From contig JAEELO010000121.1 of NCBI GenBank assembly GCA_016282705.1, forward strand, positions 4,189-68,188: a DNA stretch of 64,000 nucleotides, written 5' to 3'. The first letter of the stretch is position 1, and each line of letters starts with the position of its first letter. This DNA comes from Candidatus Gastranaerophilales bacterium (GTDB lineage: Bacteria; Cyanobacteriota; Vampirovibrionia; Gastranaerophilales; Gastranaerophilaceae). Below the pieces are notes generated by a model. It was not told the origin of the DNA. It made no database searches and was given only the letters and a program-made list of their open reading frames with translations. Shown piece by piece: positions 910 to 43,528 of this stretch. The translations under genes and the position numbers were made by a program.

Positions 910-3369
910 TTGTGCTTCAATATACTTATATATTTGTGTTTAATTATATTTGGGGTATGTCTCGTGAAAATAAATAAAATTAATGGTCTAAATAATATTT
1001 CATCAACAAAAACAAATACAACAGAAAAAACAAATAAACAATCAAAACAAAAAGAAATAAACGAATTATCAAATATATATTATAAACCGATATCATTCGG
1101 AAGAACAGTTGCCGAACATAAAAGCTGGGGGGCGCAAGTAAATCCGAAAACGAAAGAAGTTACATTTAAAATATTAACATATCCTGACACAAAAAAAGTA
1201 GAAGTAACAGTAGAAAAAAAGAATAACCCCAAGATAACACACACATATACACTTGCTAATAGAGGCTCTGGGATTTTTGAAACAAAAGCACCCATATCTC
1301 CTGAAGAAGTCGCAAACGGCGACAAATATTATTATACAATTTATAAAGGGAACGGAGATGTCGATAAAGTAAAAGACCCCTACTCATTCAGGCAGGAACA
1401 ATTACTTGGCAAATCCACAATTTATGACCATTCACTATATAAATGGAACGATGAAAATTGGTACAAAAATAACAAAAACAGAATATCAAGAAAAGCTAAT
1501 AACGAAAACGGGCTTCAACCTTTAAGAGCAGCAAGAATATATGAATTTAATACTGCTTCATTAACACAAAAAGGAACATTTGAAGCAGCAAAAGGGGTAA
1601 TAAAAAACTTAAAAGATATAGGCTTTAATGCAATAGAAATAATGCCTGCAGAGAACACATATTCATTCAACTGGGGGTATGACGGAGTAGATAAGATGGC
1701 TCCATCAGAGCACTTAGGAGGACCGGATCAGTTAAAAGAATTGGTAAATTATGCACATGAACACGGTTTAAATGTAATAATGGATATGGTGCCGAATCAT
1801 TTAGGACCTGATGGCGCTTCATTATTAAAGACAGGACCATATATAAAAGGAAATAATTGTTTCGGAGAATCATTTAATTTTGAAGGTGAAAATTCAAGAT
1901 ATGTTCGTGACTACATGGTAAATGCAGCATTAAATTGGATAGAAAACTATCACTGCGACGGACTTAGACTTGATATGACAAAATTTATGGAATCAGATTC
2001 AACAATGAAACAAATTGCAGCAGAAATCAATTATCATAGACCTGATGCATTTTTAATTGCAGAAGATTCAAGAAGCCATATAAGTGCAAATTCTGACGGT
2101 ATATACTGGGATAATCCTGATGAACCTCATGATAAAAGAGTTATAAATCCGTTAAAAGTATTTGAATCGGGCGAAGGAGAAACCGAATACCAGCATACAA
2201 TAGCAATAGAAGATATATCAAATAACCGCAGTTCTCTCGGAAGACTGGGATTTGATAGTGAATGGGATTTTAATTACTTTCATACATTAAAAGATGCCGT
2301 ATACGGCGTTATTAACATGGATGAATATGAAAAAGCTTGTTATTGTTCACAAGACAGAGTTAAATATGTTATGAGCCATGATGAAATAGGGAATTTTGAA
2401 GGTTCAAGGCTAATTCCCAAACTAATGGTTCCAATGCTTCACTTAAATGATAACATTACACTGAATTCCGAAGACATAAAACGAGCACAAGCATACAAGG
2501 AATTAAAAGGGGTAAGCTATGAAGAAGCTATCAGAATAATCAGTGTACAAAAAGCTCAATTCGCAGCTGAAAAACTCGCGATTATGCTTCAAAAAGGTAT
2601 GCTTGACAAATATGATACAACAGAATTGACTTCATATGCTTGGAAAAAAGAAGCAAACAATGCATTTAAAAGAGATGTTCTTTTGCCGCTCGGAATAAAA
2701 TTAACGTCAGGCATAAATTATGCAGCAGTTAAAACAATGTATAAAAGAAGTTTTAATAAGAATAAAATGGTTATGGCAAGAACATTTGCCACCCCCGGTC
2801 CTAAAATGGTATTTCAAGGCGATGAAAGAGCAGATTTAACGCCGTTCAGATTCTTTAGAGAATTCGACTCTGTCAAGAAAGAAGATAACTTATATATAGA
2901 AAAAGGCTATGCTCCGGGGAAATCTGCACTTAAAGAATCTACTATGGGAAATATAGATTACTCAAAAGAAGGCAGAACAAATATTCTAAGATTTAAAAAT
3001 CTGGTAAAAGACTTAAATAAAATAAATGATGAAAATCCCGCATTAATAAAAGGACATTTAATTCCGGAAAATACGGTAAAACATCAAGCTTCACAGGTCT
3101 TTGCCAATCACGCGGTTGATAACGAATCAGCAAATGAAATTTATACAATAACTAATTTCGCATCTATAAGTTATCCAAGCAGTACAGCTGCACAATATTA
3201 CATAAAATTCCCCAAAGGCAAATGGGTTGAAATATTAAATACTGCAGATAAAAGATACGGCGGTAACGGAGCATACAATAACAACTCAATTATTGAGTCG
3301 GACGGTGTTAATAATGTTCCGGTTAATCTATCAAGCGAATCAACTCTTATATTCAAGAAGGTAGAATAA
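910..3369 (+). CDS. GH13 alpha-glucan-active enzyme (branching-enzyme/TreZ-like alpha-amylase family protein)
   Basis: GH13 conserved regions are present: VIMDMVPNH (I), DGLRLDMTKF (II), FLIAEDS (III), YVMSHDEIGN (IV). Upstream is an E-set-like segment, WGAQVNPKTKEVTFKILTYP. The listed start at 910 is TTG. An in-frame GTG at 964, with GGGG 8 nt upstream, would give MKINKINGL... There is no classical signal peptide from that start. Confidence 0.85.
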   Translation: MCFNILIYLCLIIFGVCLVKINKINGLNNISSTKTNTTEKTNKQSKQKEINELSNIYYKPISFGRTVAEHKSWGAQVNPKTKEVTFKILTYPDTKKVEVTVEKKNNPKITHTYTLANRGSGIFETKAPISPEEVANGDKYYYTIYKGNGDVDKVKDPYSFRQEQLLGKSTIYDHSLYKWNDENWYKNNKNRISRKANNENGLQPLRAARIYEFNTASLTQKGTFEAAKGVIKNLKDIGFNAIEIMPAENTYSFNWGYDGVDKMAPSEHLGGPDQLKELVNYAHEHGLNVIMDMVPNHLGPDGASLLKTGPYIKGNNCFGESFNFEGENSRYVRDYMVNAALNWIENYHCDGLRLDMTKFMESDSTMKQIAAEINYHRPDAFLIAEDSRSHISANSDGIYWDNPDEPHDKRVINPLKVFESGEGETEYQHTIAIEDISNNRSSLGRLGFDSEWDFNYFHTLKDAVYGVINMDEYEKACYCSQDRVKYVMSHDEIGNFEGSRLIPKLMVPMLHLNDNITLNSEDIKRAQAYKELKGVSYEEAIRIISVQKAQFAAEKLAIMLQKGMLDKYDTTELTSYAWKKEANNAFKRDVLLPLGIKLTSGINYAAVKTMYKRSFNKNKMVMARTFATPGPKMVFQGDERADLTPFRFFREFDSVKKEDNLYIEKGYAPGKSALKESTMGNIDYSKEGRTNILRFKNLVKDLNKINDENPALIKGHLIPENTVKHQASQVFANHAVDNESANEIYTITNFASISYPSSTAAQYYIKFPKGKWVEILNTADKRYGGNGAYNNNSIIESDGVNNVPVNLSSESTLIFKKVE

Positions 3370-3401
3370 TTTAAAAATAAAAAGCATTTGGATACAAAAC
3401 T

Positions 3402-3431
3402 AATTAATACGGAATTAATTCCGTATTAATT
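3402..3431. terminator. Perfect 30-bp palindrome, probable bidirectional terminator between convergent genes
   Basis: aattaatacggaatt/aattccgtattaatt is perfectly self-complementary and flanked by A/T runs. It lies between the stop of the GH13 gene (3369) and the stop of the minus-strand symporter (3433). Confidence 0.6.
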
Positions 3432-3432
3432 T

Positions 3433-4785
3433 TTATTTATTTTCGTTTTCATCTTTTATCCCGACAAACGAATGCTCTTCTATATCCAGCTTTGAATATA
3501 TTTCTTTTTTTATAATAGGAAAGAAATCACTTCTTTGAATTTCAAATTGTCTGTTAAATTCTTCCATTTTTGTGTAATTAAACTCATTCTCCCATTTCGC
3601 AACAACAACGGTAGCAACACAATTACCTATCAAATTAACAGTGGTTCTGCCCATATCCAGAATTTGGTCAACACCTAATAATATTGCAACTCCGATTAAA
3701 GGATAACCGAAATTAGAAAGAGTACCGGCAAGAACAACAAGTGCAACTCTCGGAACACCAGCGATGCCTTTACTCGTCAACATGAGTGTTGCCATAACGA
3801 ACAACAATTGAAACGTAGAAAGTTCAATTCCAACAAGCTGAATTGAAAACAACATTGCCAGTGCCAAATATAAAGTTGAACCGTCTAAATTAAATGTATA
3901 TCCGGTAGGCATTACAAAGCCAACAATATTTTTTGGAACACCAAAGCTTTCCATAATTTTCATAGCTTGAGGCAGCGCAGCTTCTGAAGTAGAAGTGGTA
4001 AATGCGAGAATAGCAGGCTCTCTTATAGCTCTTAATAATGAATATACAGATATTCCTACAATACGACAAGCAATATTTAATATAACAAACAGAAAGATAA
4101 ATAAAGCCAAATACAAAGAAGCAATTATTTTGGCATAATTTATCATTATTCCCATACCGCTTTCGGCTATAGTATATGAAATTGCACCAAAGACACCAAT
4201 CGGAGCAAAATTCATAACCAACTGCGTAAACTTAAACATTATTTCAGATAATGATGAAACACAATTTAAAACAGGTTTAGCCTTCTCTCCGACTGTACAT
4301 ATTGCAATTGCAAAAAATACAGAAAAGACAACTATTTGTAGTAAATCACCATTAGCCATAGATTTAATAATGCTGGTAGGCACAATATTAACAAACATAT
4401 CAATTGTTGAATTATGCGAACTTTGAGCAGCCATATTTGAAACTGCATCCATCATATTTTGAGAAACAATAGATGATGAAAATCCTGCACCCGGTTTTGT
4501 AATCAATCCAACACTAAGACCTATAACCAGTGCAAAAGATGTAGCCGCAGCAAAATATATTAATGTTTTTGCCCCTAATTTACCAAGAGAACTTATGTTA
4601 CCATGCGAAGCAATACCTGTAACAATAACAGAAAACAACAAAGGAGCTATAATCATTTTTATCATATTTAAAAATATTTGAGCCAAAGGCTGCATTTTAG
4701 CGCCGATTTCGGGATATTTCCATCCTACTATAACTCCGGCGATTAAACTTAAAAATATATATAAGGTTAACTTTGTTGTTTTCAT
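3433..4785 (-). CDS. Dicarboxylate/amino acid:cation symporter (DAACS, GltP/GltT-like)
   Basis: About 10 hydrophobic segments plus family motifs APLLFSVIVTGIAS, PTGYTFNLDGSTLY, SKGIAGVPRVALVVL and DMGRTTVNLIGNCVATVVVAKWE. Confidence 0.88.
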   Translation of the reverse strand: MKTTKLTLYIFLSLIAGVIVGWKYPEIGAKMQPLAQIFLNMIKMIIAPLLFSVIVTGIASHGNISSLGKLGAKTLIYFAAATSFALVIGLSVGLITKPGAGFSSSIVSQNMMDAVSNMAAQSSHNSTIDMFVNIVPTSIIKSMANGDLLQIVVFSVFFAIAICTVGEKAKPVLNCVSSLSEIMFKFTQLVMNFAPIGVFGAISYTIAESGMGIMINYAKIIASLYLALFIFLFVILNIACRIVGISVYSLLRAIREPAILAFTTSTSEAALPQAMKIMESFGVPKNIVGFVMPTGYTFNLDGSTLYLALAMLFSIQLVGIELSTFQLLFVMATLMLTSKGIAGVPRVALVVLAGTLSNFGYPLIGVAILLGVDQILDMGRTTVNLIGNCVATVVVAKWENEFNYTKMEEFNRQFEIQRSDFFPIIKKEIYSKLDIEEHSFVGIKDENENK

Positions 4786-6232: not shown

Positions 6233-7111
6233 ATGAATAATTTAATAATTTTTTCAGAAGGAAACAATCCATTATTGGAAGATTTATGCAAAAAGATTAC
6301 AGAATTTGAAGTAACGGTAAAAAGTGCCGATGAATTAAAAGATTTAACATCAGAAGATGCAACAGTCGCCGTAATAGACATATCAGAACAAAAACTCAAA
6401 GAAATATCAATGATTATGAAGTTTCCGATTCCTGTTTTAGTTGTTGCAAATGAAGCACCGGAAAATATAACTATAAGAGGTGAAGCTTTTGATTACATTA
6501 TTAATCCCATAAATGAATATGAGCTTTCTGTTCGTTTGAAGAATCTAATAAAAATTAAAGAACTTAATCAAAAAATCAATAATATTTCAACAACAGATGA
6601 ACTAACCGGATTACATAACCGTAAATTCCTTCTTGAAAGACTGGAATCAGAAATGTCCAGAGCAAGAAGATATCATTCGTCAGTATCATGTATATTATTT
6701 GATCTGGATTTCTTCAAGGTTATTAATGATATGTACGGATATGAATGGGGTGATGTTTTACTTAAGAAAATTGCTGAGATGTTATCAAGCTTGGCAAGAA
6801 AAGAAGACGTTGTAACAAGATACGGTGATGAAGAATTTATGGTTATTCTTCCTGATACAAGCGAAGAAAACGCATTTATATTTGCCGAAAGATTCAGAAG
6901 AGATGTTGAAAAAATGTCATTTATACCGGCAGGTGAAGAAGAAAGACATCCTGTTAAAATTTCAGGAGGAATTTCATCATATCCATATATGAATAATGTG
7001 GAAGAAACTGCAAATACTATTATAAGATATGCCGAACACGCATTATATAATGCAAAAAAACGCGGCAAGAACAAAGTAGTATTATTCTCACAGGTGAACT
7101 TGGATTACTAA
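6233..7111 (+). CDS. Receiver-like domain fused to a GGDEF domain (variant GDEEF motif)
   Basis: The N-terminal ~110 aa have a CheY-like layout (VAVIDIS acceptor-Asp position, LVVANE), but the N-terminal acidic pair is replaced (IIFSEGN). The C-terminal GGDEF domain shows DELTGLHNRKF, DLDFFKVINDMYGY, I-site RKED and RYGDEEF in place of GG[DE]EF. Confidence 0.8.
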   Translation: MNNLIIFSEGNNPLLEDLCKKITEFEVTVKSADELKDLTSEDATVAVIDISEQKLKEISMIMKFPIPVLVVANEAPENITIRGEAFDYIINPINEYELSVRLKNLIKIKELNQKINNISTTDELTGLHNRKFLLERLESEMSRARRYHSSVSCILFDLDFFKVINDMYGYEWGDVLLKKIAEMLSSLARKEDVVTRYGDEEFMVILPDTSEENAFIFAERFRRDVEKMSFIPAGEEERHPVKISGGISSYPYMNNVEETANTIIRYAEHALYNAKKRGKNKVVLFSQVNLDY

Positions 7112-7112
7112 A

Positions 7113-8087
7113 ATGGTGATGTCCAGAGATAAAAAACCGATATCTTTTTCGTTTAATAACACCGAGCGATGCCAGTCAAGATGTATAACCTGTAATGGGT
7201 GGAAAACTCCTGCAAGCATGCAGGAAAAAGAATTAACTCTTGAAGAATGGAAAAAAATATTATTTAATCTCCATTCTTGGATGGGCAATTATCAGTTCAT
7301 AATTTCCGGCGGAGAACCGTTTCTTCGCGAAGATATATTTGAGATGGCACAATATGCATCAGATTTAGGCGATACGGTAAACGTCGTCACTAACGGACTT
7401 GCTTTGCCTGATAAACTTGATAAAGTACTTCATTCTGCATTTACAAACATAACATTTTCTTTAAATTCCGTGCAAAATCCAACAATACACAATACCTCCA
7501 GAGGAAGAGAAGATGCATTTAAAAGAACAATGGATGCACTGCAAAATTTAAATTACATGAATAAAACACGAAGCGGACATAAATGGAAAAATTTATTTCT
7601 ATCGACGGTAGTTATGCCTTCAAATTTATCTGAAATAAGACCGATTGCTGAGTTTTGCAGAACTGAAGGAATTGGTGTCAGCTATCAATTAATGGATAAC
7701 GGGGATGCTTTTTCAACAGGAGTTGATACAGAAAGACAAATTTATGAAGTAGATATTAAGAAAGCTGCATTATCTGCCATAGATGAAATGATAAAATTAA
7801 AACAGGAGGGATATCCTATCTGCAACGGTTTTAACCAATTGAGAGCTTTTAAAGTATTAATTGACACACCGGATGAAATACAGAATATTCAATGTATGGT
7901 AGGTGAGAATAATTTTGCTATAGATCCGTACGGAAATTGCAGAATATGTTTTTGTATGAGACCGATTGGAAATTTAAAAGACAGTCTGCCGCAAGATTTA
8001 TGGTATAGTAAAGAAGCTGATGAAGTCAGAGAAGAAATATTAAAATGCACAATGAATTGCAGATTATTAAATTGTAATTTTAAGTAG
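7113..8087 (+). CDS. Radical SAM enzyme with C-terminal SPASM/twitch-like Cys cluster domain
   Basis: CQSRCITC (CxxxCxxC) lies near the N terminus and ISGGEPFL is the SAM-binding motif. The C-terminal Cys-rich segment is CMVGENNFAIDPYGNCRICFC...CTMNCRLLNC. The start is 1 nt after the stop of the upstream GGDEF gene. Confidence 0.8.
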   Translation: MVMSRDKKPISFSFNNTERCQSRCITCNGWKTPASMQEKELTLEEWKKILFNLHSWMGNYQFIISGGEPFLREDIFEMAQYASDLGDTVNVVTNGLALPDKLDKVLHSAFTNITFSLNSVQNPTIHNTSRGREDAFKRTMDALQNLNYMNKTRSGHKWKNLFLSTVVMPSNLSEIRPIAEFCRTEGIGVSYQLMDNGDAFSTGVDTERQIYEVDIKKAALSAIDEMIKLKQEGYPICNGFNQLRAFKVLIDTPDEIQNIQCMVGENNFAIDPYGNCRICFCMRPIGNLKDSLPQDLWYSKEADEVREEILKCTMNCRLLNCNFK

Positions 8088-8094
8088 GGATTAA

Positions 8095-9105
8095 ATGTCA
8101 GAAGTAAAATATGAAAAATATGTAAGCTGTAAGTGGCTTGAATCGGGAGTATGTTTTGATAACGGAGTATATGGCTCTAATATAAAATTATGTTGTTATA
8201 TGAGTGCCCCCGGCGGCGGAAACACTATGATAATAGAAGACTACCATGGTGAAAAAATTGATTGGAATGACTTTTTCAGAATTAAACAAGAATACAGAGA
8301 TATACAAAAAAGCGGTAAAACAGTTCCGGGATGCAGAGGTTGTGTATTTCTACATGAAAGAGAATGGCCACAAGAAAATTACATAGACAATATTCTTATT
8401 GATCATTTTACAAGATGCAATTGTTCATGTACATATTGCTATACACAAGAAGATAAGAAGAGATATAACTCACTAAAGACATATAATCTCTATCCTATTA
8501 TAAAAGATATGTTTGATAAAAAGATAATACGAAAAGGCGGTGCCGTTGGATTTGGCGGAGGAGAGCCCACTATTTTACCGGAGTTTGATAAAATTATTGA
8601 GCTATTCTTGAAAAACGGATTTGATAATATGCGAGTTCCCTCATCAGGAATAAAATATTCTAAAATGATAGAAAAAGGTATATCAACAGGACAATTATCG
8701 GTTGTAATATCAATAGACAGTTCTTCAAGAAAAACCTATAAACAAATAAAACAAATAGATGCTTTTGAAAAAGTGGCAAATAATATGAAGAAATATGCAA
8801 AAGCAAAAAGAGATACACATTATGGTGTTATAAGTAAATATATTATAATTCCGACTGTTAATGACAATGAAGAAGAATTGGATAACTGGTTGAAATTTAA
8901 TAAAGAAAACAATATAGAAGTTATAGTTATAGATATAGAAAACAGCTGGCTAAATACATATAGAGATTCTGAACCAGACCAGAGAATTGTAAAGTTACTG
9001 CATTATGTAGTAAAAAAGGCAAAAGAAATGAATTTCTTCAAGCTTGAAATTTGTGACAGAGCTAGATATCTGGTACCCGAATATGAAAGCGATGAAGACG
9101 ATTAG
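8095..9105 (+). CDS. Radical SAM enzyme, paralog of the 39372-42363 trio (N-terminal four-Cys module)
   Basis: The CNCSCTYC rSAM motif sits about 105 aa in, with FGGGEPT and IIPTVND. The N-terminal module is SCKWLESGVCFD...KLCC...GGG...DWNDFF...CRGC. The protein aligns by eye along its full length with ORFs 39372, 40367 and 41368. Confidence 0.82.
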   Translation: MSEVKYEKYVSCKWLESGVCFDNGVYGSNIKLCCYMSAPGGGNTMIIEDYHGEKIDWNDFFRIKQEYRDIQKSGKTVPGCRGCVFLHEREWPQENYIDNILIDHFTRCNCSCTYCYTQEDKKRYNSLKTYNLYPIIKDMFDKKIIRKGGAVGFGGGEPTILPEFDKIIELFLKNGFDNMRVPSSGIKYSKMIEKGISTGQLSVVISIDSSSRKTYKQIKQIDAFEKVANNMKKYAKAKRDTHYGVISKYIIIPTVNDNEEELDNWLKFNKENNIEVIVIDIENSWLNTYRDSEPDQRIVKLLHYVVKKAKEMNFFKLEICDRARYLVPEYESDEDD

Positions 9106-10097
9106 ATTTCAAATCCGCTGAATACAATTGCTTCATTGAATGCTTTATTTTCTTCTTTTACTGTTTTAAAGAAATCTCTTACCAAAATTGCATTATTTTG
9201 AAGTTGTTCAAAATGATTATCACGGAAGAAATTTTCCATCATTTCTCCGGTTTGCATATATTTTCTGTTTTTTACATATAATTTAAAATTTTTATTTCTT
9301 TTAATAATTTTCTTAACCGCAAATGATAATATCATAGGAAATAAATCAAAGAATTGCGGTGAAATAATAACATCAATAAAATAATTTTTATTATCGGCAG
9401 TTCTAATTTCCAAAAAGGCTTTTGGTGCTTCTTTCTTAGATGTCTTATATATATACTTAAAAGAAGAAGCGGAATTAATTCCGTTAAAAATACCGTCAAA
9501 AAATTCTTCTTTTTCTCTTGAAAGAGAATATTTGTAGTGTGTAATTAAAGACTCATTAAATAAATCCGCAACACTTTGTGCATCAGTATTATCAAAATGT
9601 TTAAATGATTTTTCATCAATATTTTCATAAAGAAAATTCAAGTTAGAGACAGAAAGAAGTGTTTCTGTAGAGCAATACCTGAAACCGCAGCCTTTGACAA
9701 ATAAATCAATCAACTCAGACATATTGTCATCAACAGAAACATAAAAAGTATCAACACCTCTTGCACCAAATTTTGCAATAATATATTCAAGAAGCTGTTT
9801 CCCTTCTTCATGCGCATTTTTGCCTAAAAATAATCTTTTGATTTGCCACTTATAGGGATTACCTTTTTTTGCTTTGACTGTAATAACACCATTTAAATTA
9901 TTATTGTTATCAAAAACGACATATGTTTCTGCAAATTTACGACAATGTACGTTATATAAAAAATTTTGAATATTCGTTATGGGAACAGAAAGAAAAAATA
10001 ATCGTCTGTAACTCATAACATTATCATTACAGACAACAGAAATAAGCCTTTTAACATTAATAATATCAGAATAACTTATCTTTTTTATTTTTGCCAT
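9102..10097 (-). CDS. Hypothetical protein with probable GNAT (acetyltransferase) fold in the N-terminal half
   Basis: The pattern VVFDNNNNLNGVITVK...RLFLGKNAHEEGKQLLEYIIAKFGARGVDTFYVSV resembles the GNAT motif A region. The C-terminal half is unrecognised. The stop codon overlaps the convergent rSAM gene by 4 nt. Confidence 0.5.
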   Translation of the reverse strand: MAKIKKISYSDIINVKRLISVVCNDNVMSYRRLFFLSVPITNIQNFLYNVHCRKFAETYVVFDNNNNLNGVITVKAKKGNPYKWQIKRLFLGKNAHEEGKQLLEYIIAKFGARGVDTFYVSVDDNMSELIDLFVKGCGFRYCSTETLLSVSNLNFLYENIDEKSFKHFDNTDAQSVADLFNESLITHYKYSLSREKEEFFDGIFNGINSASSFKYIYKTSKKEAPKAFLEIRTADNKNYFIDVIISPQFFDLFPMILSFAVKKIIKRNKNFKLYVKNRKYMQTGEMMENFFRDNHFEQLQNNAILVRDFFKTVKEENKAFNEAIVFSGFEI

Positions 10098-10216
10098 AAA
10101 CTAAACCCACTTTATAATTATAACCTAATTTTAAATAAAAACCATCTAAATAATTTGTAATCGAATAAAGAAGATAAATATTGATAAAGCAAAAGTTAAG
10201 AAATAGTTAATAACTA

Positions 10217-10244
10217 TTGAGTAACAAAATTGATATCTTATAAT
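10217..10244 (+). promoter_or_regulatory. Candidate sigma70-type promoter for grpE
   Basis: TTGAGT (10217-10222), 16-nt spacer, TATAAT (10239-10244), 24 nt upstream of the grpE start. The SD GGTGGAG is at 10254-10260. AT-rich context makes chance matches likely. Confidence 0.3.
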
Positions 10245-10267
10245 AAAAATAACGGTGGAGTAGAGGA

Positions 10268-10945
10268 ATGCTAAAAAACTTTTTTAAAAAAGATATAAAA
10301 GACAATAATCCTTTTAATGAAAAGGATATGGATAAAGGAGATGAAACAAATACTATGACTGAAGAAAATAAAGAACCCGAACAGGAAATAGTAGAAGAAA
10401 CAACTGATAATACAGAAGAAGTATCCGATACAAACAATGAAGGTGAAGAAGCAAAAGAACCTGAAAAAACAGAAGAAGAAATCGAAGAAACTTCCGAAGA
10501 TAAATTGAAAAAAGATTTTGAAAATTTAAATAATCAATATTTAAGACTCGCCGCAGATTTTGAAAATTACAGAAAAAGACAAGCACAAGAGAGAGAAGCT
10601 CTATTGAAATACGGGGCAGAAGAGTGCATGAAAAAAGTATTGGAAGTTGTAGACAACTTCGACAGAGCCGTTAATATGGTTGAAAAAATAGATAATATTG
10701 AGAAAATGAAAGAAACATTTTTCATTTTAAATAAACAATTAATGGATTCATTAACAAAATTGGGATTAGAACAAATAAAATGTGTGGGAGAAAAGTTTGA
10801 CCCTAATTTGCATGAAGCGGTATTACAAACCCCGACAGATGATTATCCTGAAGAAACGATAATAAACGAACTTCAAAAAGGATATAAACTCGGAGAAAAA
10901 GTATTAAGACCAGCAATGGTATCAGTAGCGGTTAAACAACAATAG
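10268..10945 (+). CDS. grpE: Nucleotide exchange factor GrpE
   Basis: The hallmark LRLAADFENYRKR is present, along with the C-terminal FDPNLHEAV...GYKLGEKVLRPAMV. The N-terminal extension is acidic (E/T-rich). Confidence 0.95.
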   Translation: MLKNFFKKDIKDNNPFNEKDMDKGDETNTMTEENKEPEQEIVEETTDNTEEVSDTNNEGEEAKEPEKTEEEIEETSEDKLKKDFENLNNQYLRLAADFENYRKRQAQEREALLKYGAEECMKKVLEVVDNFDRAVNMVEKIDNIEKMKETFFILNKQLMDSLTKLGLEQIKCVGEKFDPNLHEAVLQTPTDDYPEETIINELQKGYKLGEKVLRPAMVSVAVKQQ

Positions 10946-37752: not shown

Positions 37753-37875
37753 ATGATGTACACACAAATTCGACGCTATATTAATAAAGGAGGCTTTACG
37801 ATATAATCGTACGATTTGTGGTGTAAATCAATAAGAGATATATAAAGCCTTCTATTAAAATAGAAGGCTTTTTTA
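37753..37875 (+). promoter_or_regulatory. Candidate leader-ORF / antiterminator / terminator switch
   Basis: A 17-codon ORF (MMYTQIRRYINKGGFTI, 37753-37806) lies here. Its 3' codons GGA GGC TTT (aggaggcttt, 37788-37797) can pair over 10 bp, with one G-U, to the 5' arm of the downstream terminator (aaagccttct, 37844-37853). That pairing is mutually exclusive with the terminator hairpin. Confidence 0.3.
37844..37875 (+). terminator. Strong rho-independent terminator
   Basis: 11-bp perfect stem aaagccttcta/tagaaggcttt with a 6-nt loop, running into a 6-T run. Confidence 0.7.
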
Positions 37876-37892
37876 TGTATAAGGAGAAAATA

Positions 37893-37967
37893 ATGCGACG
37901 TAACAAAAAAGAAATAATAAGAAATACAACATTTAAAAAATTATGTAATTTAGTATGGGGCTTATAG
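37893..37967 (+). CDS. Candidate 24-aa small ORF (MRRNKKEIIRNTTFKKLCNLVWGL)
   Basis: The ATG at 37893 is preceded by a consensus SD AAGGAG with 6-nt spacing. It starts 18 nt after the terminator T-run and ends 14 nt before the likely start (37982) of the 452-aa gene. Too short for the ORF track. Coding status is unproven. Confidence 0.35.
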   Translation: MRRNKKEIIRNTTFKKLCNLVWGL

Positions 37968-39318: not shown

Positions 39319-39347
39319 TTCACTTTTTATAATGGTTATGCTAAAAT
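39319..39347 (+). promoter_or_regulatory. Candidate internal promoter upstream of the rSAM trio
   Basis: TTCACT (39319-39324), 17-nt spacer, extended -10 TGcTAAAAT (39339-39347), in the 58-nt gap before 39372. It shares the 11-mer tatgctaaaat with the 37702-37730 candidate. Confidence 0.33.
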
Positions 39348-39371: not shown

Positions 39372-40367
39372 TTGCGTTACAGAAGTTGTTATTGGATAGA
39401 AACAGGGATAAATTTTGATATAGATTCATATAAAGTTTGCTGCTTATATAGTGCAAAAGGCGGCGGCAACACTATAGTTAAAGATAACTATAAAGGTGAG
39501 CCCGTAGACTGGGATAAGTTTTTTGAATTTAAAAAAATGATGAAAGACATGCACAAAAGGGGAGAAACATACCCCAAATGTGAAGGTTGTATATATCTTG
39601 AAGAAAAAGACTGGCCTGATGACCATACAAAAATCAGTATGATTAATTTGGATTACTGGACAAAATGTAATTCTAAATGTTCATATTGTCACACAATGCT
39701 CGATAAAGAACGATATAATAAATTTAAAAACTATAACTTCCTTCCTATTCTTAAAGATATGATTAAACGAGATATTTTAAGAAATAACGGACACGTTAGT
39801 TTTGGAGGAGGAGAAGTCACACTGTTAAGAGAGTTTGATAAACTCTTACATATATTTATGGATGCAGGCTTCCCTTTAACAAGAATTCACTCATCCTGTA
39901 TAAAATACTCAAGAGCAATAGAAAAAGGATTAAAGAACGGCTGCGTAGACTTAATCGTATCAGTTGATGCAGGTTCAAAGCAAATGCATGAAAAAATAAA
40001 ACAAGTAAAATCCTATGACAAAGTATGGAAGAATTTGAAACGATATGCATCTCATCAAAAAGACCCGTATGCAGTTAAATCAAAATATATATTAATTCCG
40101 GGAGAAAATGATATAAAAGAAGAAATAGATTTATGGCTTCAAAAGTCTAAAGAGAACGGAATAAATTGTGTATTCCACGAAATTGAATCAAAATGGTTCT
40201 ATGCAAGAAGAGACAGAAATGAAGAAATTCCTAAAGAAATACTTGAATTTTTTGATTATGCAAAAGAAAAAGCTGAAGCTTTAGGCTTGAAATATGTATT
40301 ATATGAAAGAGCAGAGCATATGATGGAATACATAAAAGAGAGAAATGAACAGAAGGAGAGCCAATAA
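39372..40367 (+). CDS. Radical SAM enzyme, paralog 1 of tandem trio (N-terminal four-Cys module)
   Basis: TTG start after AGAGGA. SCYWIETGINFD...VCC...GGG...DWDKFF...CEGC, then CNSKCSYC (CxxxCxxC), FGGGEVT and LIPGEND. Confidence 0.85.
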   Translation: MRYRSCYWIETGINFDIDSYKVCCLYSAKGGGNTIVKDNYKGEPVDWDKFFEFKKMMKDMHKRGETYPKCEGCIYLEEKDWPDDHTKISMINLDYWTKCNSKCSYCHTMLDKERYNKFKNYNFLPILKDMIKRDILRNNGHVSFGGGEVTLLREFDKLLHIFMDAGFPLTRIHSSCIKYSRAIEKGLKNGCVDLIVSVDAGSKQMHEKIKQVKSYDKVWKNLKRYASHQKDPYAVKSKYILIPGENDIKEEIDLWLQKSKENGINCVFHEIESKWFYARRDRNEEIPKEILEFFDYAKEKAEALGLKYVLYERAEHMMEYIKERNEQKESQ

Positions 40368-41359
40368 TGCAGGAATATACAAGCTGTCATTGGCTTCAAC
40401 ACGGTTTAAGTTTTGAAAATGATCATATAGAAATGTGTTGTTTATGTTGTCATAAAGGCGGCGGAAGACTCTATATAAAAGAAAATTACAATGGCAAAGG
40501 TGTAAAATGGGAAGACATTTTTAACCTGAAAGAGAAGTTCATTGAGCAAAACAAAAACGGAGAAATAGACCCCAGATGCGATGGCTGTTTTAATCTTGTA
40601 CACAGAGGCTGGCCGGATGATGATAAACATTATATAAATTACATTCACTTCAATCATTGGACTCACTGTAACAGTGATTGTATATATTGCTATACTTCTT
40701 GGGACAAAATAAATTATCAAAGAAGAAAACATTATCAAGTTCTTCCTATGATAAAAGATTTATTCAAGAAAAAATTATTCAGACCGGGAGGCGAAATTAC
40801 ATTTGCAGGCGGTGAACCCACAATATTAAATGAATTTGAAGATTTGACAAATTTTCTTATAAAACAACCCGAAGTTGAAAGGATTACTGTTCATTCTTCA
40901 GGCATTAAACATTCCAAAGCTATTGAAAACGGAATAAAAGCGGGGAAATTATCAGTCTGTTTATCGGCAGACTCAGGTACTCGGGAAATTTTCAAACGGG
41001 TAAAAAGAGTTGATAAATTTGATAAATTCTGGGAAAATGCAGAAAAATACGCAAAAGCTCAAGAAAAATCAGAAAATAAATATAATGTAGAAACCAAGTT
41101 TATTTTAATACCTGATGTAAATACAACAAAAGAAGAAATTGATAAATGGCTTGATTTAACCGTAAAATGCGGAATAAAATCAGTTGTAGCAGATATTGAG
41201 AATGACTATTGCAGAGATTTAAGAGCAAAAGATTTACCAAAACCTCAATTTCTTGTTGATTTAGGCAACTATATAATTCAACGTACAAAAGAGTTAGATT
41301 TAAACCTGATTGATTATAATAATTTCAGATATCTGACAACAGAATATCATTTAATGTAA
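40367..41359 (+). CDS. Radical SAM enzyme, paralog 2 of tandem trio
   Basis: TAATG overlap with the previous gene. SCHWLQHGLSFE...MCC...GGG...KWEDIF...CDGC, then CNSDCIYC, FAGGEPT and LIPDVNT. Confidence 0.85.
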   Translation: MQEYTSCHWLQHGLSFENDHIEMCCLCCHKGGGRLYIKENYNGKGVKWEDIFNLKEKFIEQNKNGEIDPRCDGCFNLVHRGWPDDDKHYINYIHFNHWTHCNSDCIYCYTSWDKINYQRRKHYQVLPMIKDLFKKKLFRPGGEITFAGGEPTILNEFEDLTNFLIKQPEVERITVHSSGIKHSKAIENGIKAGKLSVCLSADSGTREIFKRVKRVDKFDKFWENAEKYAKAQEKSENKYNVETKFILIPDVNTTKEEIDKWLDLTVKCGIKSVVADIENDYCRDLRAKDLPKPQFLVDLGNYIIQRTKELDLNLIDYNNFRYLTTEYHLM

Positions 41360-41367
41360 GGAATAAA

Positions 41368-42363
41368 ATGGAAAAATTCGAAAGCTGCAGTTATATAGAA
41401 CATGGGATGGTATTAGACCATTGTAACAGAATACGTTCATGTAATAATTTTAATCCGAGATACGGAGGACGCCCTGTTATATATGAAAATTACCACGGCG
41501 AAAAAATTGACTGGAAAGAATTTTTTGATATAAAACGAGAATTAAGAAAGAAATACAGAGAGAATTCCTGTCCCGAACTATGCAAAGATTGTGTAAATAC
41601 AGCATATAAAGAATGGGACGATGATGATTATATAGACTACTTACTTTTAACCCCATGGGTTCCTTGCAACTCTAATTGTATATACTGTGAAGCACCAAGA
41701 GATAAAGAAGTAATAGCAAATACAAAAGTATATAAAGTACTGCCGTTAATTAAAGATATGATAAAAAATAATATTTTAAAGAAAGACGGCACAATAGATT
41801 TTGCAGGCGGAGAACCTACAATATACAGAGAATTTGAAGATCTTTTACATGAATTTATAAAGCACGATTTCACAAAAATAATTATTCATACTAATGCAAT
41901 TAAAAGAAGTAATGCAATTATAAAAGGTCTAAAGAAAGGTGTAGTAAGAGTTCTTGTTTCTATTGATGCAGGTTCAAGAGAAGTACACGAAAAAGTCAAA
42001 CAAGTTAAATCTTATGACAGCGTATGGAATAACCTTAAGGAATATGCAAAAAATCAGCCTAAAGATGCAGATAATGTAAAAGCCAAATATATCATTGTTC
42101 CCGGATTAAATGACAATGAAATGGAAATCAGTTTATGGCTCGAAAAATGCAAAGAAATAAATATTAAAAGTGTTGTTTTAAATTTAGATTTTAACTGGAT
42201 AATGAAAAATGTAGACGGCGATTTAATGCCTATATACAATCTTATGAAATATACTCAGCACAGAGCTTGGGAATTAGGTATAAACTGCGAATTATACGGG
42301 CAGATTTTTCAGGTCAAATGCGAAGTTGAAAAATCAAGAGAAGAGAATATCGCCGGATTTTAA
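41368..42363 (+). CDS. Radical SAM enzyme, paralog 3 of tandem trio
   Basis: SCSYIEHGMVLD...SC...YGG...DWKEFF...CKDC, then CNSNCIYC, FAGGEPT and IVPGLND. Confidence 0.85.
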   Translation: MEKFESCSYIEHGMVLDHCNRIRSCNNFNPRYGGRPVIYENYHGEKIDWKEFFDIKRELRKKYRENSCPELCKDCVNTAYKEWDDDDYIDYLLLTPWVPCNSNCIYCEAPRDKEVIANTKVYKVLPLIKDMIKNNILKKDGTIDFAGGEPTIYREFEDLLHEFIKHDFTKIIIHTNAIKRSNAIIKGLKKGVVRVLVSIDAGSREVHEKVKQVKSYDSVWNNLKEYAKNQPKDADNVKAKYIIVPGLNDNEMEISLWLEKCKEINIKSVVLNLDFNWIMKNVDGDLMPIYNLMKYTQHRAWELGINCELYGQIFQVKCEVEKSREENIAGF

Positions 42364-42380
42364 ATAGACATATACAAAAA

Positions 42381-42415
42381 AATAGGCAGATTAAAAATTA
42401 ATCTGCCTATTTTTA
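42381..42415. terminator. Bidirectional hairpin terminator after the rSAM trio
   Basis: 14-bp perfect stem aataggcagattaa/ttaatctgcctatt with a 3-nt loop, an A-run upstream and a T-run downstream. Confidence 0.72.
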
Positions 42416-43271: not shown

Positions 43272-43528
43272 GCCGTGCTCCACGGGGACATTGCGGATCT
43301 CTTGACCCGAACGCAAAGCGGGGTGCAGAGCCTACTGTGAGACTCATGTAAGGGCAGCGGACTGTATATTAATTGTTGATAAGAACTCTAACTATGGCGA
43401 AAGCCTTCGAACCGTGTCAGGATGGGAACATAGCAGCACTAAGGAGATACTTTCGGGTGTAGTTACGGTAAAAGTAGATTATTATACAGAAAATTGTTTT
43501 TATATCAGACGATAGGTAGTGGCACGGC
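43272..43528 (+). ncRNA. ffs: Signal recognition particle RNA, long (Alu-domain-containing) form
   Basis: gtcaggatgGGAAcatagcagc matches the universally conserved helix-8 core (E. coli GUCAGGUCCGGAAGGAAGCAGC) with a GGAA tetraloop and AGCA loop. The terminal helix is gccgtgc (43272)/gcacggc (43528). The AT-rich helix-5 arms ctgtatattaat/attattatacag pair. Length about 257 nt. Confidence 0.82.

Follow-up and report, generated by a model that had tools for sequence, protein, structure and literature searches.

The window analyzed here, a 64,000-nt stretch of DNA from gut Melainabacteria (Gastranaerophilales), carries four genes of one radical-SAM family, all on the plus strand. Three lie back to back (rS1, rS2, and rS3) and the fourth (rS4) lies elsewhere in the window. 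These genes and the features around them are as follows.

6233 to 7111, plus strand: GGDEF diguanylate cyclase, the first gene of a conserved GGDEF/SPASM-radical-SAM/rS4 unit
7113 to 8087, plus strand: radical-SAM/SPASM protein of 324 aa, its gene ending 7 nt before rS4
8095 to 9105, plus strand: rS4, a paralog of 336 aa
37875 to 37967, plus strand: small basic open reading frame (ORF) of 30 aa, or 24 aa if counted from its Met codon at 37893, with ...NLVWGL as its last residues
37955 to 39313, plus strand: Lys-rich protein of 452 aa with two predicted TM helices (residues ~147 to 166 and 402 to 425)
39319 to 39347, plus strand: promoter-like site within the 58 nt that separate the 452-aa gene from rS1 (TTCACT, 17 nt, TG-TAAAAT)
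39372 to 40367, plus strand: rS1, 331 aa, with an N-terminal four-Cys domain and a radical-SAM core
39372 to 39629, plus strand: twitch-like module of rS1, aa 1 to 86 (C6, hairpin 12 to 21, C23, helix 47 to 62, C70xxC73)
40367 to 41359, plus strand: rS2, 330 aa, its start overlapping the rS1 stop
41368 to 42363, plus strand: rS3, 331 aa
42378 to 42414, no strand assigned: terminator, a 17-bp hairpin with T runs on either side, common to the radical-SAM operon and a convergent BaxI-like gene

An earlier note on this DNA had taken the four genes for paralogs, and pairwise alignment bore this out, with rS2, rS3, and rS4 showing 37 to 43% identity to rS1 over their full length. Because each of the four matched the family profile at E values of 1e-115 to 1e-120, this paralogy lies far beyond chance. 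rS1 begins with a TTG codon, with AAGAGGA 8 nt upstream. As had been described, the junction of rS1 and rS2 is a one-base overlap (TAATG), but the gap between rS2 and rS3, previously given as 9 nt, is 8 nt (GGAATAAA). The promoter-like site before rS1 is a consensus match only, such sites being no more frequent in the region than expected from shuffled sequence.

The radical-SAM motif CX3CX2C is present in all four proteins (CNSKCSYC, CNSDCIYC, CNSNCIYC, and CNCSCTYC) at about residues 99 to 106, that is, ~100 residues in, and is preceded in each by the N-terminal module first recognized in the earlier note: S-C-x-[WY]-[IL]-[EQ]-x-G, then C(C), GG, DW..FF, and C-x-[GD]-C. Two other motifs were less uniform than claimed. 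The GGGE SAM motif is found in paralogs 1 and 4 but reads AGGE in paralogs 2 and 3, and the I(I/V)PxxND strand is replaced by IPDVNT in paralog 2; the motifs otherwise read as quoted. All seven Cys residues were retained in 259 of 262 copies from 93 related loci, and, judged by sequence, all family copies look catalytically competent.

Orthologues of rS1 with 77 to 89% identity were found in ~45 metagenome-assembled genomes (MAGs), and the triple is syntenic in ~45 Gastranaerophilales genomes, so that the paralogs are not merely dispersed but keep their tandem layout. Orthologues of rS4 (70 to 77% identity) occupy the same context in loci L065, L068, L071, and L072. There are at least 7 to 9 family copies per genome, arrays run to four to six genes, and the family as a whole (E ≤ 1e-30) comprises 470 clusters at 50% identity. 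The description of the locus as a tandem triplication was correct in that three coupled paralogs are present but understated the case: the triplication is ancient and is one part of a larger family expansion, with 7 to 9 copies per genome and arrays of up to six.

We then compared the proteins with known radical-SAM families. They show the features of the superfamily, namely, CX3CX2C, a PF04055 match above the cutoff, a SAM-binding motif, and alternating beta/alpha elements in the AF2 model. PF04055 was the only Pfam match of all four (57.7 to 73.5 bits against a gathering cutoff of 29.5). Foldseek searches with the full rS1 model returned the cores of SkfB, SuiB, PFL-AE, GDGT-MAS, BlsE, DesII, and viperin at E values of 1e-9 to 1e-5, and the probability was 1.00 for many radical-SAM cores, although these were generic cores with TMq values of at most 0.51. 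Searches of PDB sequences with a single protein and with the family profile gave only generic core matches as well. Apart from PF04055, no curated family in Pfam, NCBIfam, or PADLOC reached its cutoff with the four paralogs, 110 + 10 homologues, or isolated N-terminal domains, and no entry in Pfam, NCBIfam, or the PDB describes the family beyond the generic core. The view that this is not a named radical-SAM family therefore holds, there being no trusted-cutoff match to a characterized one. Literature searches on N-terminal twitch domains, on radical SAM in Melainabacteria/Gastranaerophilales, and on DUF1796 found no description of the family, and plasmid and phage collections contained no members of it.

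Among NCBIfam models, the strongest core similarity was to MoaA (GTP 3',8-cyclase), a member of the SPASM/twitch group, which 106 of 110 family members matched with E values down to 1e-18, but scores against TIGR02666 and NF001199 were at most 62.9 bits, compared with thresholds of 231 to 325. The best PDB profile match was the sugar decarboxylase BlsE (E = 1.5e-10). Foldseek aligned 177 columns of BlsE/DesII (rmsd, 4.0), but only the first ~120 core residues correspond, and no accessory domain is held in common.

The core is compact and resembles that of PFL-AE (Foldseek TM score of 0.64 normalized to PFL-AE), and there were matches to TIGR02493, TIGR02494, NF038283, and PADLOC pVip, as would suit enzymes that activate glycyl-radical proteins or other protein partners or, alternatively, antiviral viperin-like nucleotide modifiers. 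These scores fall far below the cutoffs, however, at 46 bits or less against 174 to 232 for the two activase models and 37 to 49 bits against 180 for the two viperin models, and the matches do not extend beyond the first half of the core; on pVip, the paralogs are outscored by the SPASM neighbor in the window, which is unrelated to them. None of the loci examined has a glycyl-radical enzyme, kinase, or defense gene nearby, and activases with extra clusters are known to have these located after, not before, CX3CX2C. We therefore rejected both readings, which we regard as highly improbable, on the grounds of the sub-cutoff half-core scores and the missing partner genes.

The distinctive part of the proteins is the N-terminal four-Cys domain. 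Its Cys residues (C6, C23, C70, and C73 in paralog 1) were invariant across 110 homologues with 25 to 58% identity, so the loss in homologues that might have told against the domain did not appear. The AF2 model of rS1 has a pLDDT of 96.9, with the N-terminal ~85 residues modeled confidently, and two independent models gave the same order of elements: C6, strands 12 to 16 and 19 to 21, C23, helix 47 to 62, and C70xxC73. In twitch-type auxiliary-cluster domains, a beta-hairpin has Cys ligands on both sides, and further ligands follow helix alpha2' (PMC6231123). The predicted models place the Cys residues of the N-terminal module in the manner that this source describes for SPASM/twitch domains, whereas the location differs: such domains follow the core, and the module, at residues 1 to 86, precedes it. 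No Cys after CX3CX2C was invariant in the alignments of the four paralogs or of the 110 homologues.

Profile and fold searches with this domain were less informative. SPASM profiles against 71 isolated N-terminal domains each matched a single domain (PF13186 at E = 0.075 and TIGR04085 at E = 0.02). The one family to recur was NF033640 (N_Twi_rSAM), whose N-terminal region, approximately positions 9 to 75, was matched by 13 of the 71 domains, weakly (best E = 1.7e-5); the rS1 domain alone matched NF033640 only, over positions 9 to 75 (E = 7e-4). Foldseek with the 86-residue N-terminal model gave no PDB match at E ≤ 10, small Cys-rich domains being hard for this program. The N-terminal-domain profile matched no PDB sequence, and hhalign found no match between it and either the SPASM protein of the window or a small, poor ad hoc alignment of SPASM C termini. 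Since these structure and profile searches came up empty, the case for twitch homology rests on topology and weak HMM matches. The earlier proposal of a twitch domain moved to the N terminus was thus favored by the order Cys, hairpin, Cys, helix, CxxC and by the NF033640 matches, but it drew no backing from the Foldseek check that had been recommended for it or from the profile searches. We infer that the N-terminal ~85 residues form a twitch-type domain placed N-terminally.

The same four residues, which include a CxxC, could in principle bind structural Zn in a zinc-ribbon-like cap, and the proteins would therefore be single-cluster radical-SAM enzymes. The absence of a SPASM/twitch match in structural and Pfam searches fits this explanation. 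We nevertheless consider it unlikely: the Cys residues are arranged around a hairpin and helix in the twitch pattern rather than as a knuckle pair, the sole recurrent HMM match is N_Twi_rSAM, and the CxxC lines up with the residues that ligate [4Fe-4S]N in GDGT-MAS.

A twitch-type domain of this kind can be set against three known arrangements. NF033640, an uncharacterized subfamily, also has ~100 residues ahead of its core, which starts at about model position 106 of 398, but the four-Cys proteins are ~70 residues shorter. Full-length scores in the family were 20 to 50 bits, compared with its whole-protein threshold of 170. Three of the window paralogs scored 19.5 to 31.9 bits, and it was not among the best 25 families for rS4; among the 110 homologues the best E value was 1.8e-13, and among 10 longer relatives it was absent at E ≤ 1e-8. 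BtrN (PDB 4M7T), the prototype twitch enzyme, has a Cys4-ligated auxiliary [4Fe-4S] cluster whose ligands are placed like the family Cys residues, one on each side of the hairpin and two beyond the helix, and the Cys spacing of the N-terminal module is presumably similar to that of the BtrN ligands. The cores are related as well (profile match, E ~1e-6), but the twitch domain of BtrN is C-terminal, and it has no detectable fold or sequence match to the family domain. In GDGT-MAS/Tes (PDB 7TOL), an auxiliary [4Fe-4S] domain lies directly N-terminal to the core, in the position of the four-Cys domain of the family, and the family CxxC aligns with the CX3CX2C that supplies its ligands (C68PELC72KDC75 in rS3); the cluster of GDGT-MAS is bound by three Cys and a His, and the enzyme differs further in having lipid pockets, a rubredoxin domain, and a C-terminal cluster domain. 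An architecture with such a domain ahead of the core thus has precedent, both in the N-terminal-twitch NCBIfam family and in GDGT-MAS.

The likeness to GDGT-MAS invites the alternative that the proteins modify lipid tails and are related to synthases of tetraether and membrane-spanning lipids (Tes/GDGT-MAS and Mss). GDGT-MAS was the best PDB sequence match of paralog 3, in an alignment spanning its N-terminal cluster motif, NF045702 was matched by 75 of 110 members, membrane proteins (the 452-aa two-TM protein and MatE) are neighbors, and Mss homologues have been reported in the Cyanobacteria/Melainabacteria group (PMC13159169). Against this, NF045702 scores reach at most ~49 bits compared with a cutoff of 450, and no hydrophobic segment is evident by eye in the four sequences. 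GDGT-MAS carries rubredoxin and C-terminal auxiliary-cluster domains (PMC9433317); because the family proteins end at ~330 aa, 200 residues short of the 526-residue PDB chain, they have no room for either. We judge a lipid substrate of this type to be improbable.

Clues to how the paralogs are used came from other loci. Two family modules are fused in a 643-aa protein (cluster n = 137), the counterpart of two adjacent genes in L093; such fusions show only that the paralogs work together, and the sequential chemistry on one substrate suggested in the earlier note would go beyond this. In 14 loci from sister lineages, a MatE gene lies 0 to 43 nt downstream of the orthologous triple, and in L087/L088 a family member is fused to a MatE domain that is 52% identical to the triple-adjacent MatE; the 64-kb window contains no MatE gene. 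A gene for a DUF1796 putative Cys peptidase adjoins arrays in L066, L067, L081, and L084 and lies 726 nt away in L073. The earlier statement that no exporter or protease is adjacent is accurate for the window but not for these relatives, in which MATE follows the triple and putative peptidases flank arrays. In a further cluster (n = 14), a full family module carries an ApbA/ketopantoate-reductase-like domain fused to it, and neighbors elsewhere include GT8, Acyl_transf_3, LytR_cpsA_psr, Kelch, and sulfatase. Across the loci examined, no substrate-defining partner was conserved throughout the family, and contexts were mostly housekeeping genes.

Upstream of the triple, the 452-aa gene, whose product matched no family in Pfam or NCBIfam, is a facultative neighbor present in ~40 related loci and missing from L020, L028, L029, and the MatE clade. 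The small ORF, the stop of which falls 10 nt into the 452-aa gene, is conserved in 32 loci, where its codons show synonymous changes and that gene accompanies it in every case; it is under selection at the amino-acid level, with an invariant Trp. Listed earlier, as a 24-aa ORF, among possible radical-SAM partners, it proved to travel with the 452-aa protein instead. Because it co-occurs only with the 452-aa gene, we rejected it as a precursor.

This bears on the alternative that the paralogs are RiPP maturases installing cross-links or epimerizations in a ribosomal peptide, such as the small ORF ending PFVKLRNLIWGL, with the DUF1796 peptidase and MATE completing the pathway. Weak core matches to sactipeptide, ranthipeptide, and cyclophane maturases, the peptidase and MATE adjacencies, and the selection on the small ORF with its invariant Trp are all points in its favor. 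Pfam searches, however, detected no RRE/PqqD-type domain, and no precursor gene co-occurs with the family: the small ORF is missing where rS1/rS2 orthologues occur without the 452-aa gene (L020, L028, L029, and L045 to L063), a search within 2 kb of each array turned up no further conserved small ORF, and the 7 to 9 copies are dispersed among housekeeping genes. Moreover, the overlap of the small ORF with an SD-less start better fits translational coupling or an arrest leader. We find peptide maturation distinctly unlikely.

The reading that we favor, and hold to be somewhat more probable than its negation, is that the paralogs are two-cluster radical-SAM oxidases acting together on a non-peptide substrate that is probably exported. 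Each of the four genes would encode a soluble two-cluster enzyme of an uncharacterized family, the N-terminal twitch-type domain of which may bind a fully Cys-ligated auxiliary [4Fe-4S] cluster. Since such a cluster leaves no iron open, it would not bind the substrate as the MoaA cluster does but would conduct or accept electrons, the role proposed in BtrN and SuiB. Cys4 auxiliary clusters have been assigned an electron-acceptor role, whereas the C-terminal twitch domain of MoaA has three Cys and an open Fe to which GTP binds (PMC9012708). SAM cleavage would be followed by H-atom abstraction and oxidation of the substrate radical, with dehydrogenation or C-C/C-X bond formation as the outcome. 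That the paralogs function together is suggested, and in part demonstrated, by translational coupling, long-range synteny, and the pairwise fusions elsewhere. The substrate might be a non-peptide small molecule or a sugar-type envelope precursor, and the product may leave the cytoplasm through the MATE exporter in sister lineages and perhaps through the adjacent two-TM protein in the lineage of the window; these are the weakest steps, and the substrate assignment draws on weak and heterogeneous hints.

A bolder version, possible but doubtful, envisages a hetero-oligomeric radical-SAM machine with a permuted SPASM/twitch architecture, its auxiliary cluster at the N terminus, confined to non-photosynthetic Melainabacteria and massively expanded there, that would carry out several radical steps toward an exported metabolite or an envelope modification of gut Gastranaerophilales, its expression perhaps gated by a ribosome-arresting leader (...NLIWGL-stop).

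Radical-SAM enzymes with auxiliary clusters catalyze reactions that rank among the most difficult in biology, and their chemistry is decided by where the second cluster sits and how it is ligated. Here, a large family without a curated model, structure, or literature has its auxiliary site ahead of the core and could show whether a twitch domain functions when N-terminal. At 7 to 9 copies per genome, it takes up a noticeable share of the coding capacity of gut Melainabacteria, whose genomes are small and whose metabolism is, to our knowledge, known solely from MAGs, and the fusions and the MATE link offer concrete handles toward its product.

The GGDEF gene, also listed earlier as a possible co-occurring neighbor, does belong to a conserved unit with the SPASM-radical-SAM gene and rS4. 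The 324-aa SPASM protein of this unit reached no NCBIfam cutoff, its best score being 73 bits for NirJ2, for which 500 are required, and in L097 a homologue with 41% identity to it is encoded at a distance of 2.5 kb from family members.

The earlier note had described three head-to-tail paralogous radical-SAM ORFs (rS1, rS2, and rS3) and a fourth, rS4, at 8095-9105. ORF calls, full-length identities to rS1 of 37 to 43%, and a family profile that matched each of the four with an E value of ~1e-115 to 1e-120 all confirmed this arrangement. No other ORF in the window (G+C, 31.8%) reached a comparable score, the next being a distant neighbor, the radical-SAM/SPASM protein encoded at 7113-8087 (E 1e-11). 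The TAATG overlap claimed for the rS1/rS2 junction was present, but the second junction, given as a 9-nt gap, measured 8 nt. Similarly, the motifs quoted in that note were found, but with deviations, namely, AGGE in rS2 and rS3 and NT for ND in rS2. The start codon of rS1 is TTG, with AAGAGGA 8 nt upstream.

Radical-SAM paralogs and adjoining features in the window
8095-9105, + strand, rS4, the fourth ORF, apart from the triple
37844-37871, terminator hairpin after rplI
37875-37967, + strand, small basic ORF of 24 to 30 aa ending in ...NLVWGL, the stop codon falling 10 nt into the 452-aa gene (start, 37955)
39372-40367, + strand, rS1, head-to-tail ORF
40367-41359, + strand, rS2, head-to-tail ORF
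41368-42363, + strand, rS3, head-to-tail ORF
42378-42414, bidirectional hairpin after rS3

We searched 1.84 billion cluster representatives exhaustively with the family profile and obtained 5,848 matches at E<=1e-3 and 470 at E<=1e-30, many of which cover the full length of the protein, N terminus included. In an alignment of 110 diverse homologues (25 to 58% identity), the invariant columns were C6, C23, C70, C73, C99, Y105, C106, G147, and Y225 (rS1 numbering), and C103 was conserved in at least 90% of the sequences. All seven Cys were kept in 259 of the 262 copies found in 93 fetched related loci, and thus no paralog resembles a pseudo-enzyme. In Pfam, the four paralogs matched only PF04055; in NCBIfam, their cores gave matches below the cutoff to MoaA, viperin, PFL-AE, Tes, tungsten-cofactor maturase, and N_Twi_rSAM, and no curated cutoff was approached by the four paralogs, the 110 homologues, or 10 longer relatives. 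That these proteins are activases or viperins is hardly credible, since the matches to those families cover only half of the core and there are no partner genes. The family is without a representative in Pfam, NCBIfam, or the PDB, and a literature search found no description of it. Because there are many uncharacterized radical-SAM families, a specialist would be only moderately surprised; the novelty lies in how large the family is, in how far it has expanded in Melainabacteria (7- to 9-fold, with tandem arrays), in the fusions of two modules, and in the link to MATE transporters.

AlphaFold2 models of full-length rS1 (pLDDT 96.9) and of residues 1 to 86 alone (pLDDT 94.0) agreed with each other. 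In the rS1 model, C6 is followed by a β-hairpin (residues 12 to 16 and 19 to 21), C23, a short strand, a helix (47 to 62), and C70xxC73, after which a strand runs into barrel strand β1. The SPASM/twitch fold, as defined in the SkfB structure paper, consists of a β-hairpin and then helix α2'; a single ligand Cys stands on either side of the hairpin, and two more come after the helix, as in BtrN (PMC6231123). The order of Cys and structural elements in the N-terminal module is identical. When searched alone, the first 95 residues of rS1 matched only NF033640 (N_Twi_rSAM; model positions 9 to 75 of 398; E 8.6e-4). Of 71 N-terminal domains searched in isolation, 13 matched this model (best E 1.7e-5), and it was the only NCBIfam family to recur; the radical-SAM family as a whole falls more than 100 bits short of the NF033640 cutoff. 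Sequence support for an N-terminal twitch is thus weak but specific. In GDGT-MAS, the core is directly preceded by an N-terminal domain for an auxiliary [4Fe-4S] cluster, the ligands of which are C73, C77, C80, and a His (PMC9433317); phmmer aligned the CPYDCGLC motif of this domain with CPELCKDC of rS3, in which only the last two Cys are invariant in the family. Searches of the PDB with the isolated domain (Foldseek) and of PDB sequences with its profile returned nothing, Pfam has no model for it, and hhalign gave no match to the window's SPASM protein or to a small, poor alignment of SPASM C termini. We consider it probable that the domain is homologous to twitch, and we are more confident still that it holds a metal site of some kind. 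Structural zinc at these Cys in place of an Fe-S cluster is rather unlikely, and the proteins are likely to carry an auxiliary Fe-S site in a twitch-like domain at the N terminus. With the whole protein as the query, Foldseek matched only generic radical-SAM cores in the PDB (SkfB, SuiB, PFL-AE, GDGT-MAS, BlsE, DesII, viperin, Mmp10, and NifB), with query-normalized TM-scores of 0.51 or less; no solved structure represents the family.

The nearest relatives all came from MAGs of Gastranaerophilales or other Melainabacteria from animal guts. About 45 loci repeat the order rplI, small ORF plus 452-aa protein (where present), rS1, rS2, rS3, and a convergent BaxI-like gene, with orthologue identities of 64 to 92%, implying that the triplication is old and has been maintained. 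Sister lineages (loci L046 to L063) carry rS1 and rS2 orthologues (49 to 65% identity) with a different paralog ahead of them. In 14 of these loci (within L047 to L063; e.g., L049:10062-11396), a gene for a MatE-family transporter lies 0 to 43 nt downstream of the orthologous triple, and L087/L088 encode a fusion of a family member with a MatE domain that shares 52% identity with the sister-lineage transporter (L087:9001-11292). There is no MatE gene in the window. On the same L087 contig, seryl-tRNA synthetase was called as two adjacent ORFs (2650-3914), an N-terminal domain of 196 aa and a catalytic domain of 224 aa, a split that may be due to misassembly or to an alternative genetic code. 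The window also encodes a bacterial small SRP RNA at 43386-43471 on the + strand (RF00169; 53.7 bits versus a cutoff of 40), which accounts for the "conserved small ORFs" on both strands around this position in related loci.

The 452-aa protein encoded upstream of rS1 matches no family; it is rich in Lys (16%) and is predicted to have two transmembrane helices. It was found in ~40 loci and is absent from L020, L028, L029, and more distant lineages; an XRE-type HTH ORF on the opposite strand takes its place in L020 and L029. Its gene lacks its own Shine-Dalgarno sequence and is overlapped by the small ORF, whose peptide ends in ...PFVKLRNLIWGL. In 32 related loci, the small ORF always accompanies the 452-aa gene, and its last 12 codons read (P)FVKL[RM]NL[IV]WGL with many synonymous changes, including all four Gly codons; a Gly-codon change falls where the overlapping 452-aa frame is changed nonsynonymously. 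Judged from this pattern of substitution, the small ORF is a real, selected micropeptide, and it may be a translational-coupling or ribosome arrest leader peptide for the 452-aa gene. This sole conserved small ORF tracks the 452-aa gene and not the radical-SAM genes, and no RRE was detected, both of which make RiPP maturation unlikely as the function of the family. Between the rplI stop codon and the terminator hairpin there is also a 17-aa ORF, MMYTQIRRYINKGGFTI (37753-37806, + strand), and ORFs resembling "..IQNRRYI.KGGFTI" occur at the equivalent place in at least six related loci; Rfam gave nothing here, and the site may encode a peptide or form a conserved RNA element.

Other loci carry longer arrays, with four to six paralogs in L066, L067, L070, and L074 to L084, and clustering of the 262 copies at 55% identity gave 34 groups. 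Summing the loci of one assembly, which gives lower bounds, we counted at least nine copies in CAKVIE01 (4+5) and JAEZLC01 (3+6), at least eight in CANPYW01 and JAEZIX01 (3+5 each), and at least seven in several other assemblies. Genes for DUF1796, a putative papain-like cysteine peptidase, flank the arrays of L066, L067 (2176-2877), L081 (6141-6854), and L084, and another (9692-10318) lies 726 nt from the array of L073; scores in these five Melainabacteria loci were 34 to 40 bits against a cutoff of 23. The remaining neighbors elsewhere are mainly housekeeping genes. The protein heading a 137-member cluster, individual members of which are found on up to 53 contigs, is 643 aa long and contains two complete modules, each an N-terminal four-Cys domain plus a radical-SAM core. 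This fusion (L095:9001-10932) replaces two adjacent genes (321 and 324 aa) of L093 (9026-10975), the two loci sharing a histidine kinase and a MalK-like ABC ATPase followed by the radical-SAM gene(s). Because the fusion occupies the place of two adjacent genes, it is good evidence that neighboring paralogs act together physically. In a 14-member cluster, an ApbA/ketopantoate reductase-like NAD(P)-binding domain is fused to a complete module, and a further protein combines a methyltransferase domain with two modules.

Three features bear on function: the motifs of the radical-SAM core, an N-terminal domain, modeled with confidence, that holds four further invariant Cys, and the coupling and fusion of paralogs. 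By analogy with SPASM/twitch enzymes, the four Cys would fully ligate an auxiliary [4Fe-4S] cluster. The fully ligated cluster in BtrN and in SuiB (AuxI) is held to take the substrate-radical electron in a two-electron oxidation, whereas the three-Cys cluster of MoaA binds substrate (PMC9012708); the family module has four Cys, not three. On the precedent of BtrN and SuiB, H abstraction and then oxidation would be expected, leading to dehydrogenation or bond formation, and several paralogs would work in sequence or as a complex. We lean slightly toward this explanation, chiefly as regards architecture and joint action. Its weakest step is the substrate, tentatively a non-peptide small molecule or sugar-type precursor whose product would be exported, as suggested by the MatE genes next to and fused with family members, the fusion to a reductase-like domain, the rank of BlsE as top PDB profile match, and occasional glycan-related neighbors. 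Lipid modification of the Tes/Mss type is quite unlikely, given scores far under the cutoff and the absence of the C-terminal cluster and lipid-binding parts.

The fourth paralog, rS4, lies in a tight unit of GGDEF, radical-SAM/SPASM, and rS4 genes with gaps of 1 and 7 nt, which is kept in L065, L068, L071, and L072. A full-length, 41%-identical homologue of the SPASM neighbor occurs in an unrelated metagenomic locus (L097:3226-4314, - strand), 2.5 kb from family members; that locus further carries an ApbA-radical-SAM fusion and three other radical-SAM genes. This hints at a recurring partnership between SPASM and N-twitch radical-SAM proteins. Convergent on rS4, and overlapping its stop by 4 nt, is a gene (9102-10097, - strand) whose 331-aa product gave no more than a marginal GNAT match (E 0.006) and which occupies the same position in the four loci that keep the unit.
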